Positions 28,287 to 30,308 of a DNA stretch of 64,000 nt are shown piece by piece (position 1 is the stretch's first letter; every line of letters begins with the position of its first letter). The stretch lies in the NCBI RefSeq assembly GCF_016026235.1, contig NZ_CP065613.1; one strand, written 5' to 3'. The stretch is from Escherichia coli. Lineage in GTDB: Bacteria > Pseudomonadota > Gammaproteobacteria > Enterobacterales > Enterobacteriaceae. Below the pieces are notes generated by a model. The model had not been told where the DNA came from. It saw nothing but the letters and a program-made list of their open reading frames with translations, and searched no databases. Made by a program: the position numbers and the translations under genes.

Positions 28287-28300
28287 TGACTGGTGTTAGA

Positions 28301-28603
<303 letters not shown>

Positions 28604-28632
28604 GAACAGTGTGCATTTTGGCAATAAATCTG

Positions 28633-28657
28633 AAACCAACTGTCATGTCGGTTTTTT
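28633..28657. repeat. 25-bp direct-repeat copy A (aaaccaactgtcatgtcggtttttt), 24/25 identical to copy B at 29109-29135
   Basis: Read directly from the sequence; the two copies bracket the small-ORF module. Confidence 0.7.
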
Positions 28658-28658
28658 A

Positions 28659-28687
28659 AAGGCCGAAGGTGGTAAACCTTCGGCCTT
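28659..28687 (-). terminator. Strong hairpin (11-bp stem aaggccgaagg / ccttcggcctt) 17 nt downstream of the small-ORF stop
   Basis: Perfect stem with a 7-nt loop; on the minus strand it is followed by a second weaker hairpin with a U-rich tail (copy A). Confidence 0.5.
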
Positions 28688-28703
28688 AGCTACGTTTCCT
28701 CAG

Positions 28704-28787
28704 TTATTCAATAAACTGACGGATCAGTTCCAGCAGCGCGATTAGCGCCTTAAGCACGATGAGAACTTTATCGAGAAAAGTTTTCAT
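28704..28787 (-). CDS. Candidate 27-aa type I toxin-like peptide (DinQ/TisB-like), MKTFLDKVLIVLKALIALLELIRQFIE
   Basis: ATG with a GGGAG RBS 8 nt upstream; amphipathic single-helix peptide; the LIALLELIR stretch matches my memory of E. coli DinQ; structured 3' end; candidate antisense RNA nearby. Confidence 0.45.
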   Translation of the reverse strand: MKTFLDKVLIVLKALIALLELIRQFIE

Positions 28788-29012
28788 CCGTTGCTCCCTT
28801 AAGGGAGAAAGACAATCACAGCTTACCCTTACGTTGCCTGTAACTATGATTTTCTTCATGTGCTAGATGAGGACTGCCTCTCTCCAAATTAGAGCACCAG
28901 AATCAGCACCACCTGTATCCTGACCAGGACTTAAAAGTACTTTTCCGCACTGCGGTAATCCCTTGAGGCAGTATCACTACTAGCGTCGGGATTGTATCGC
29001 CAACATAGCTGT

Positions 29013-29135
29013 TTGAATATGTAGGCATCCTGACTTATAATTCACTTGCTAGATGAGGACTGTTTCATTTCTGCCCGGAACCACCAAGTCTTGGGCGGAA
29101 AAAATAAAAAAACCGACTGTCATGTCGGTTTTTTT
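29013..29135 (+). ncRNA. Candidate small RNA: TTGAAT-17bp-TATAAT promoter (29013-29041), predicted start near 29048, terminator hairpin plus T7 at 29111-29135
   Basis: Near-consensus sigma-70 promoter and intrinsic terminator bracket about 88 nt with no ORF; the 5' end carries a 16-nt core (tgctagatgaggactg, 29047-29062) identical to 28861-28876 in the presumed leader of the toxin-like ORF. Confidence 0.35.
29109..29135. terminator. Bidirectional A-tract/hairpin/T-tract terminator (also terminates selU); direct-repeat copy B
   Basis: aaaaaaaccgac-tgtcat-gtcggttttttt; 63 nt downstream of the selU stop on the minus strand. Confidence 0.65.
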
Positions 29136-29198
29136 ATATCTGTATTCTGGTGCAACCATTCTGTTCTCACGACAATCGCCGTTTCAGAATACCGCCCA

Positions 29199-30308
<1,110 letters not shown>

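Follow-up and report, generated by a model that had tools for sequence, protein, structure and literature searches.

A probable DinQ/AgrB-type toxin-antitoxin module in the ybbP-mnmH spacer of Escherichia coli

A 64-kb stretch of Escherichia coli DNA (contig NZ_CP065613.1 of assembly GCF_016026235.1; hereafter the window) probably contains, as judged from its sequence, a complete type I toxin-antitoxin module of the DinQ/AgrB (dql) family between ybbP and mnmH. The gene order is ybbA-ybbP, spacer, mnmH-allS, and the module sits in the ybbP-mnmH spacer. It comprises the open reading frame (ORF) of a DinQ-like hydrophobic peptide and, divergent from it, the gene of a small RNA (sRNA) whose 5' arm is complementary to the 5' untranslated region (UTR) of the toxin mRNA. 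The sRNA gene is very likely a true AgrB homologue paired with a DinQ-like toxin, and its transcription can be predicted with good confidence. By homology, the module is a second chromosomal copy of the DinQ/AgrB (dql) family. The features are listed in Table 1.

The dinQ/agrAB system was characterised in 2013, and AgrB represses dinQ (Weel-Sneve 2013, PMC3567139; also PMC5066626). Homologues designated 'dql' are found on chromosomes and plasmids of Enterobacteriaceae, and some strains have them in addition to dinQ (Kristiansen 2016, PMC5066626). Antisense RNAs for dql genes were predicted in T1TAdb (PMC8594479), and the plasmid pair dqlB/agrB of pOXA-48 was validated in 2025, when compensatory mutations proved the pairing requirement (PMC12365149). 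A literature search revealed no publication that ties ybbP, mnmH or selU to dinQ; supplementary lists (such as the 14 dql genes of Kristiansen 2016) and T1TAdb lay outside that search. RefSeq and other databases already label the ORF of the window 'damage-inducible type I toxin DinQ' (dinQ). No non-coding RNA is annotated beside dinQ in any RefSeq record of the ybbP-mnmH locus that we examined.

Results

The sRNA gene belongs to the AgrB family

A search with the Rfam AgrB model (RF02891) detected the sRNA at 29049-29137 of the plus strand with 53.6 bits (E 1.5e-7; gathering score 40 bits), covering model positions 1-84 of 84. K-12 agrA and agrB score 106 and 108 bits on the same model, and the sRNA of the window is by this measure a divergent AgrB member. 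A 5' pairing arm, single-stranded in the fold, precedes a central hairpin (29070-29099), which an A-rich linker connects to the terminator hairpin (29104-29137). The fold energy is -31.4 kcal/mol (z -4.7), and the family alignment showed compensatory changes in the central stem.

An initial annotation of this DNA had proposed a sigma-70 promoter at 29013-29041 and an intrinsic terminator around 29111-29135, and both were recovered. TTGAAT-17-TATAAT agrees with 10 of 12 consensus positions and was the sole promoter-like site called by the scan in 28300-29400. Its -35 and -10 elements, spacer length and distance to the start match the K-12 agrA and agrB promoters position by position in the alignment; the transcription starts of the latter were mapped by primer extension (PMC3567139). 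The terminator has a perfect 14-bp stem (29104-29117 / 29124-29137) followed by a T-run. By alignment with the annotated 5' ends of K-12 agrA and agrB, the sRNA starts with 29049 or with the preceding G (29048); a start near 29048 had been proposed. The sRNA start lies on the strand opposite to the toxin ORF, and the distance from it to the toxin ATG further on is 261 nt.

Two further proposals held only in part. With a start at 29049 or 29048, only 14-15 of the 16 repeated bases described below lie inside the sRNA, and not all 16 as had been claimed. The RNA had also been called ORF-less, and this needs a qualification: a frame begins with the ATG at 29053 and reads past the terminator, with no Shine-Dalgarno (SD) sequence and no stop codon within the RNA. 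A second promoter had been suggested from TATGAT at 28845-28850. We consider it unsupported: its best -35 matches 3/6 positions, the scan did not call it, and no -10-like hexamer was found at this place in eight other loci.

Table 1. Features of the predicted toxin-antitoxin module (positions in the window)
Feature	Position	Strand	Description and basis
Copy of the sRNA terminator	28633..28657		25 nt, 24/25 identical; direct repeat; minus-strand hairpin at the 3' end of the toxin transcript
GC-rich hairpin	28659..28687	-	12-bp stem, then a short U run only; right after the toxin stop codon; inverted repeat
Toxin ORF	28704..28787	-	27 aa, MKTFLDKVLIVLKALIALLELIRQFIE, DinQ-like hydrophobic peptide; NCBIfam match, RefSeq dinQ
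Shine-Dalgarno sequence	28794..28800	-	AAGGGAG, 6 nt before the ATG, in a small palindromic hairpin (CCCUUAAGGG); sequence, fold
sRNA target in the toxin 5' UTR	28862..28885	-	mRNA nt 100-123; holds GGAGAGAGG, equivalent to dinQ 'sequence 2'
Toxin mRNA 5' end	28965..28984	-	GCUAGUAGUGAUACUGCCUC; partial mimic of the sRNA arm; predicted 'locking' stem with the target
Predicted toxin promoter	28991..29019	-	-10 TACAAT (28996..28991), weak -35 TATTCA (29019..29014); nine-leader alignment
sRNA promoter	29013..29041	+	-35 TTGAAT (29013-29018), 17-nt spacer, -10 TATAAT (29036-29041); consensus scan
AgrB-family sRNA	29048..29137	+	~88 nt; Rfam match, fold, family alignment
sRNA pairing arm	29048..29071	+	14-15 perfect pairs (29048/9-29062) and 9 further positions; register comparison, duplex prediction

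A unique repeat joins the sRNA and the toxin leader

Two exact copies of TGCTAGATGAGGACTG are present in the 64-kb window; they lie on the plus strand and span 28861-28876 and 29047-29062. No further copies with up to 2 mismatches were found in the window (chance expectation 0.05). The repeat can be lengthened to 22 nt with 2 mismatches (28855-28876 / 29041-29062). The first copy lies 74-89 nt 5' of the toxin ATG (28787, minus strand). Both the identity of the two copies and this spacing had been noted in the initial annotation, and both were borne out by our search.

The first base of the sRNA pairs 76 nt upstream of the toxin start codon. The distance in K-12 is also 76 nt; the AgrB site on dinQ spans G88-A119 there (PMC5066626). 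Beyond the core, the arm and the leader face each other over 9 more positions with 4 Watson-Crick pairs, 4 G·U pairs and 1 mismatch. The site and the predicted pairing stand as originally proposed, whereas the 16 contiguous pairs are to be replaced by 14-15 pairs within the RNA plus this wobble-rich extension. The initial annotation had also suggested predicting the duplex between the sRNA and the toxin 5' UTR as a check. An unrestricted prediction caught the agrA/agrB paralogue and long interior loops, and was replaced by a register comparison and a search of the leader only; the latter gave -46.0 kcal/mol, with z = -6.7 against shuffled arms.

The arrangement is conserved and the pairing co-varies between loci

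A scan for DinQ-like peptides in one genome per species yielded 37 loci. In 10 related loci an AgrB match lies on the strand opposite to a DinQ-like toxin gene and precedes it by ~270-350 nt. This arrangement is present in Escherichia, Citrobacter, Pantoea, Serratia, Leminorella, one Photorhabdus locus and the IncI1 plasmid dqlB. Each AgrB-bearing locus has a match to the 5' arm of its sRNA in its own toxin leader, always 70-84 nt before the start codon, and the arm sequence itself varies by locus (K-12, GTTAGATAAGAACTCTCTCACTCC; plasmid, GTTAGTTGAAAAGAGACTTCCTCC; Pantoea, GTTAGACAGAGGCTGTTCCATTCC). When duplex energies were compared across sRNAs and leaders, each leader paired best with its cognate sRNA. 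Of the computational evidence for a functional pairing, this co-variation between loci is the strongest. The E. coli sequences themselves vary too little to inform on covariation within the species (at least 99% identity in most genomes).

The locus of the window aligns end to end with K-12 dinQ-agrA, including the ORF, the SD sequence, the leader, the divergent promoters, the sRNA and the terminator. A tblastn search of plasmids with the 27-aa peptide gave no match, probably because the query was short and low-complexity sequence was filtered; a DNA search led to the plasmid dqlB locus.

The duplex predicted for K-12 AgrA is much stronger with the dinQ leaders of E. albertii (-56.6 kcal/mol) and Citrobacter (-54.0) than with the leader of K-12 itself (-44.4). 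The one sRNA of E. albertii occupies the agrA position, and its arm is AgrA-like. On this basis, AgrA may hold the ancestral sequence, the K-12 leader and AgrB having changed together, rather than having degenerated.

A group of DinQ-like loci from Photorhabdus and Xenorhabdus (L006-L020, L022-L025, L030-L031) encodes peptides with IIVLKALIALLELIR, which are the closest to the peptide of the window. These loci showed no Rfam AgrB match, and in the 650 nt upstream no leader repeat exceeded 10 nt. In five of them a C4 antisense RNA (RF01695) was detected above the gathering score ~850 nt downstream.

The toxin gene and its leader

The peptide matches the NCBIfam model toxin_DinQ (NF041472) with 40.9 bits (cut-off 30 bits) over residues 5-26, which covers the whole profile. 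With the DqlB model (NF041473) it reaches 24.5 bits, below the cut-off of 35 bits, and the DqlB insert is absent. Databases hold gene models of 27 aa and of 51 aa for this toxin. The longer one starts at a minus-strand ATG (28857-28859), 2 nt downstream of the sRNA target, and lacks an SD sequence. By analogy to DinQ, the 27-aa form is likely the only one translated.

Alignment of nine leaders revealed a conserved -10 element, followed after 7 bases by G(T/C)TAG. Its equivalent in the window is TACAAT (28996..28991), at the position of the -10 elements of dinQ and the dql genes. GATACT (28975..28970) was considered as the -10 element and dropped, since the nine-locus alignment places the conserved element at TACAAT. 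From the aligned promoter, toxin transcription is predicted to start at ~28984, which would give a 5' UTR of 197 nt and would place the core at nt 109-124 of the toxin mRNA. The leader would thus begin upstream of 28876, on which the initial annotation had made pairing depend. For K-12 dinQ, the numbered landmarks of Kristiansen 2016 (U16-C28, G88, G94-G106, A119 and the SD sequence G184-G187; PMC5066626) place +1 at L002:1483, and all five agree.

In the published scheme of dinQ and dql mRNAs, four UTR elements form alternative 1:2, 2:3 and 3:4 pairings, with the SD sequence in hairpin 3:4 (PMC5066626). The minimum-energy fold of the predicted full-length toxin mRNA of the window pairs nt 1-20 with nt 100-123. 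This long-range 1:2 stem consists of ACUGCCUC with GAGGCAGU and GCUAG with CUAGC, and the SD hairpin is present in the same fold. K-12 dinQ, folded as a control, likewise showed the long-range stem. A 2:3 pairing of GGAGAGAG with CUUUCUCC is possible by eye. Downstream of the ORF, the GC-rich hairpin aligns with the position of the K-12 dinQ terminator.

The toxin promoter lacks a LexA box

No CTGT-N8-ACAG sequence with up to one mismatch was found near the locus of the window. The best LexA-like 20-mer in the window matches 11/20 positions with one core triplet, which is background level. In contrast, the -10 element of dinQ in Escherichia and Citrobacter is covered by TACTGTATGATTATCCAGTT or a close variant of it, at -205/-211, with 15/20 matches and both CTG/CAG cores. 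Because the toxin promoter has no LexA box, the toxin of the window is probably not induced in the SOS response, and the 'damage-inducible' label is probably wrong for this copy. For the same reason the locus fits, by sequence, the broader 'dql' class better than true dinQ.

The -35 element of the sRNA (TTGAAT, plus strand) and the predicted one of the toxin (TATTCA, minus strand) share nearly all base pairs at 29013-29019. The predicted divergent starts are ~65 nt apart in the window and 81 nt apart in K-12, where the -35 elements are separated by ~10 bp. The back-to-back promoters of the window might compete for RNA polymerase.

A duplicated terminator brackets the module

The two terminator copies (28633-28657 / 29110-29134) are 477 nt apart and bracket the module; the chance expectation for such a pair is 0.00. 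The copy behind the toxin was also listed as a minus-strand terminator-like site, just behind the toxin's own hairpin. It was absent from all other family loci tested, and we rejected it as a family-wide feature: it is present at the ybbP-mnmH locus type only. Most simply, it is the scar of an earlier tandem arrangement. With this copy, the 3' hairpin of the toxin transcript and the sRNA terminator hairpin are exact complements, and their 6-nt loops are complementary too. The two hairpins could make a second, kissing-loop contact. Fst/RNAII of the pAD1 par locus uses a contact of this kind.

Distribution and decayed variants in E. coli

The sRNA region was found in 1326 of 5426 complete E. coli genomes (~24%), in all cases on the chromosome, at a single site and mostly with at least 99% identity. 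Both genomes examined among the carriers without the toxin start segment, EC488 (L042) and AGR6137 (L048), have a 108-nt deletion between the short direct repeats GATGAGAACT (28759-28768) and GATGAGGACT (28867-28876). It removes the toxin start, the SD sequence and most of the target, and leaves the sRNA gene intact. In E. coli BS-01 (L043 1440-1600) a degenerate remnant of the sRNA gene is flanked by an rhs pseudogene and mnmH; it preserves the -35 element, but its core is interrupted by a 24-nt insertion and its terminator carries mutations. This remnant suggests that an rhs element displaced or disrupted the module in some lineages. In K-12, rhsD-ylbG occupies the ybbP-mnmH site and no trace of the module was found there. 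Escherichia sp. E1V33 has both the ybbP-mnmH locus and a canonical dinQ-agrB (L005, L038).

On the other side of the module, a cluster of repetitive extragenic palindromes and bacterial interspersed mosaic elements (REP/BIME; 28290-28607) separates it from the ybbP stop codon. The cluster contains two full matches to naRNA4 (RF02564) above the gathering score and a partial third one, as well as a match to ES036.

Discussion

Comparison with known systems

The initial annotation had compared the geometry of the locus to those of dinQ-agrB and zorO-orzO. The first comparison turned out to be one of homology, given the Rfam AgrB and toxin_DinQ matches and the end-to-end alignment with K-12. K-12 dinQ-agrA-agrB, which lies in the arsR-gor spacer, likewise encodes a 27-aa hydrophobic toxin, with the motif ALIALLELIR common to both peptides. 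Its 5' UTR measures ~195 nt and has the long-range 5' stem and the SD hairpin that are predicted for the window. The divergent sRNAs of the two loci have homologous promoters, a central hairpin, a terminator and a corresponding UTR site. The locus of the window differs from K-12 in its position at ybbP-mnmH, in having one sRNA gene instead of two and in lacking a LexA box. Its start codon is ATG instead of GTG, with the peptide shifted by three residues; the spacer between the divergent promoters is shorter, with overlapping -35 elements; and a terminator copy has been added behind the toxin gene. K-12 AgrB forms 30/31 pairs with its target, compared with the 14-15 perfect pairs and wobble-rich extension of the window.

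The plasmid dqlB-agrB loci (IncL pOXA-48, IncI1) belong to the same family and also have a single AgrB-type sRNA upstream of the toxin; the IncI1 copy (L003) resembles the window further in having no LexA box. The locus of the window is chromosomal, and its peptide fails the DqlB model and is without the 7-residue DqlB insert. The complementarity of the plasmid pair amounts to ~35 nt, with -61.5 kcal/mol.

For zorO-orzO of E. coli O157:H7, the likeness holds in geometry only: the toxin has a long 5' UTR, active only after processing, with which a divergent sRNA pairs. The toxin of the window belongs to the DinQ family. The OrzO-P model (RF02083; gathering score 60) gave no match to the plus-strand RNA, and its sole match (24.1 bits) lies on the opposite strand. 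An evolutionary link between the zor and dinQ UTRs has been considered possible (PMC11264685). In tisB-istR-1, too, the sRNA is divergent; it targets the processed, active form of a toxin mRNA whose 5' UTR is long, with participation of RNase III (PMC5066626). This system is unlike the locus of the window in that tisB is controlled by LexA and IstR-1 blocks a ribosome standby site, and there is no sequence relationship.

Proposed mechanism

By homology with dinQ/agrB and dqlB/agrB, the full-length toxin mRNA would be translationally inert, with its own 5' end paired to the target and the SD sequence held in a hairpin. Removal of the 5' end would free the target, which would then pair with the anti-SD element and open the ribosome-binding site. 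The sRNA would bind the freed target, whereupon the SD hairpin would re-form, a substrate for RNase III would be made and no toxin would be produced. Repression by the sRNA of the window may be partial, because its duplex with the mRNA is weak for the family.

Strength of the pairing and alternative explanations

Several observations weigh against a fully working module. The duplex energy of -46.0 kcal/mol is far from those of K-12 AgrB/dinQ (-59.9 kcal/mol) and the other loci (-54 to -62 kcal/mol) and equals the level of K-12 AgrA/dinQ (-44.4 kcal/mol), and AgrA gives no protection against DinQ (PMC3567139). The perfect complementarity of 14-15 pairs with its wobble extension compares with 30-35 nt elsewhere in the family, and four mismatches abolished the antitoxin function of pOXA-48 AgrB (PMC12365149). 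For the leader of the window, the cognate sRNA exceeds non-cognate sRNAs by a margin of only 3-6 kcal/mol. Modelling of SD accessibility in the full-length, truncated and target-blocked mRNA gave no clear shift, and the K-12 control was weak too; we gave this modelling no weight as evidence. Since ~1.2 promoter-like sites are expected by chance in a region of the size scanned and 1 was found, the sRNA promoter hexamers alone prove nothing; the case rests on homology. Finally, segment 28772-28864 is present in only 1135 genomes, so that ~191 of the 1326 carriers have no toxin start segment; retention of the sRNA is thus independent of a live toxin.

The duplex energy and the narrow cognate margin would fit a sRNA that is a decaying relic resembling AgrA, transcribed and no longer effective, with the toxin silenced mainly by its own 5' UTR and a weak promoter. 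The GGCCAGAGC segment, paired at every other locus, has diverged in both copies of the window, and the full-length mRNA is predicted to sequester both target and SD sequence unaided. However, the mismatches of K-12 AgrA are scattered, with a longest perfect run of 9 nt, whereas the run of the window is uninterrupted and lies at the extreme 5' end of the sRNA. Its 14-15 nt come close to the roughly 18-21 nt of pairing that are enough for OrzO and IstR-1. Across seven aligned E. coli alleles, neither the core nor any of the sRNA body varies, to which we attach little weight given the low diversity of the species. We regard a relic as possible and rather unlikely. Setting the weak pairing against the uninterrupted 5' run, we lean towards the prediction that the sRNA is an effective antitoxin, with considerable reserve.

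The carriers that keep an intact sRNA gene without the toxin start, SD sequence and most of the target could also point to an orphan regulator that mainly serves other targets, or to cross-talk with canonical dinQ, the adjacent toxin being incidental. The predicted pairing with the dinQ leaders of K-12 (-41.9 kcal/mol) and E. albertii (-44.7 kcal/mol) is near that with its own leader, E1V33 has both loci, and antitoxin-only orz loci are documented in E. coli (PMC11264685). Yet the deletion may simply be recent, the adjacent leader is still the best predicted partner, and no other target was found, with no search aimed at one; we regard this explanation as improbable. That there is no sRNA at all appears highly improbable. 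The hairpin at 29104-29137 would then be a bidirectional terminator of the convergent mnmH, and the hexamers and the repeat would be remnants of an old duplication. The hairpin is indeed symmetric (A-run before, T-run after), lies 62 nt past the mnmH stop codon and was called on the minus strand too, and promoter-like sites occur at chance frequency. But the Rfam match covers the whole AgrB model, beyond the terminator; the hexamers, spacer and start are positionally homologous to the mapped promoters of K-12 agrA and agrB; and the -10 element is a perfect TATAAT.

It is unlikely that this copy has departed from the classical antitoxin role, with the toxin restrained mostly in cis, the sRNA free-standing or in cross-talk with dinQ, and a kissing-loop contact between the terminators. 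The locus is an ordinary member of the AgrB/DinQ family, new or at least unannotated, which leaves the picture of the mechanism unchanged and reveals no new one.

About a quarter of E. coli strains, including the laboratory strain ATCC 8739, carry with this locus a second membrane toxin of the DinQ type. The locus provides a natural test of the minimum complementarity for an AgrB-type RNA. Together with its variants, it also forms a natural series of decay, from the intact module through the toxin-deleted form with the sRNA kept to the remnant disrupted by rhs.

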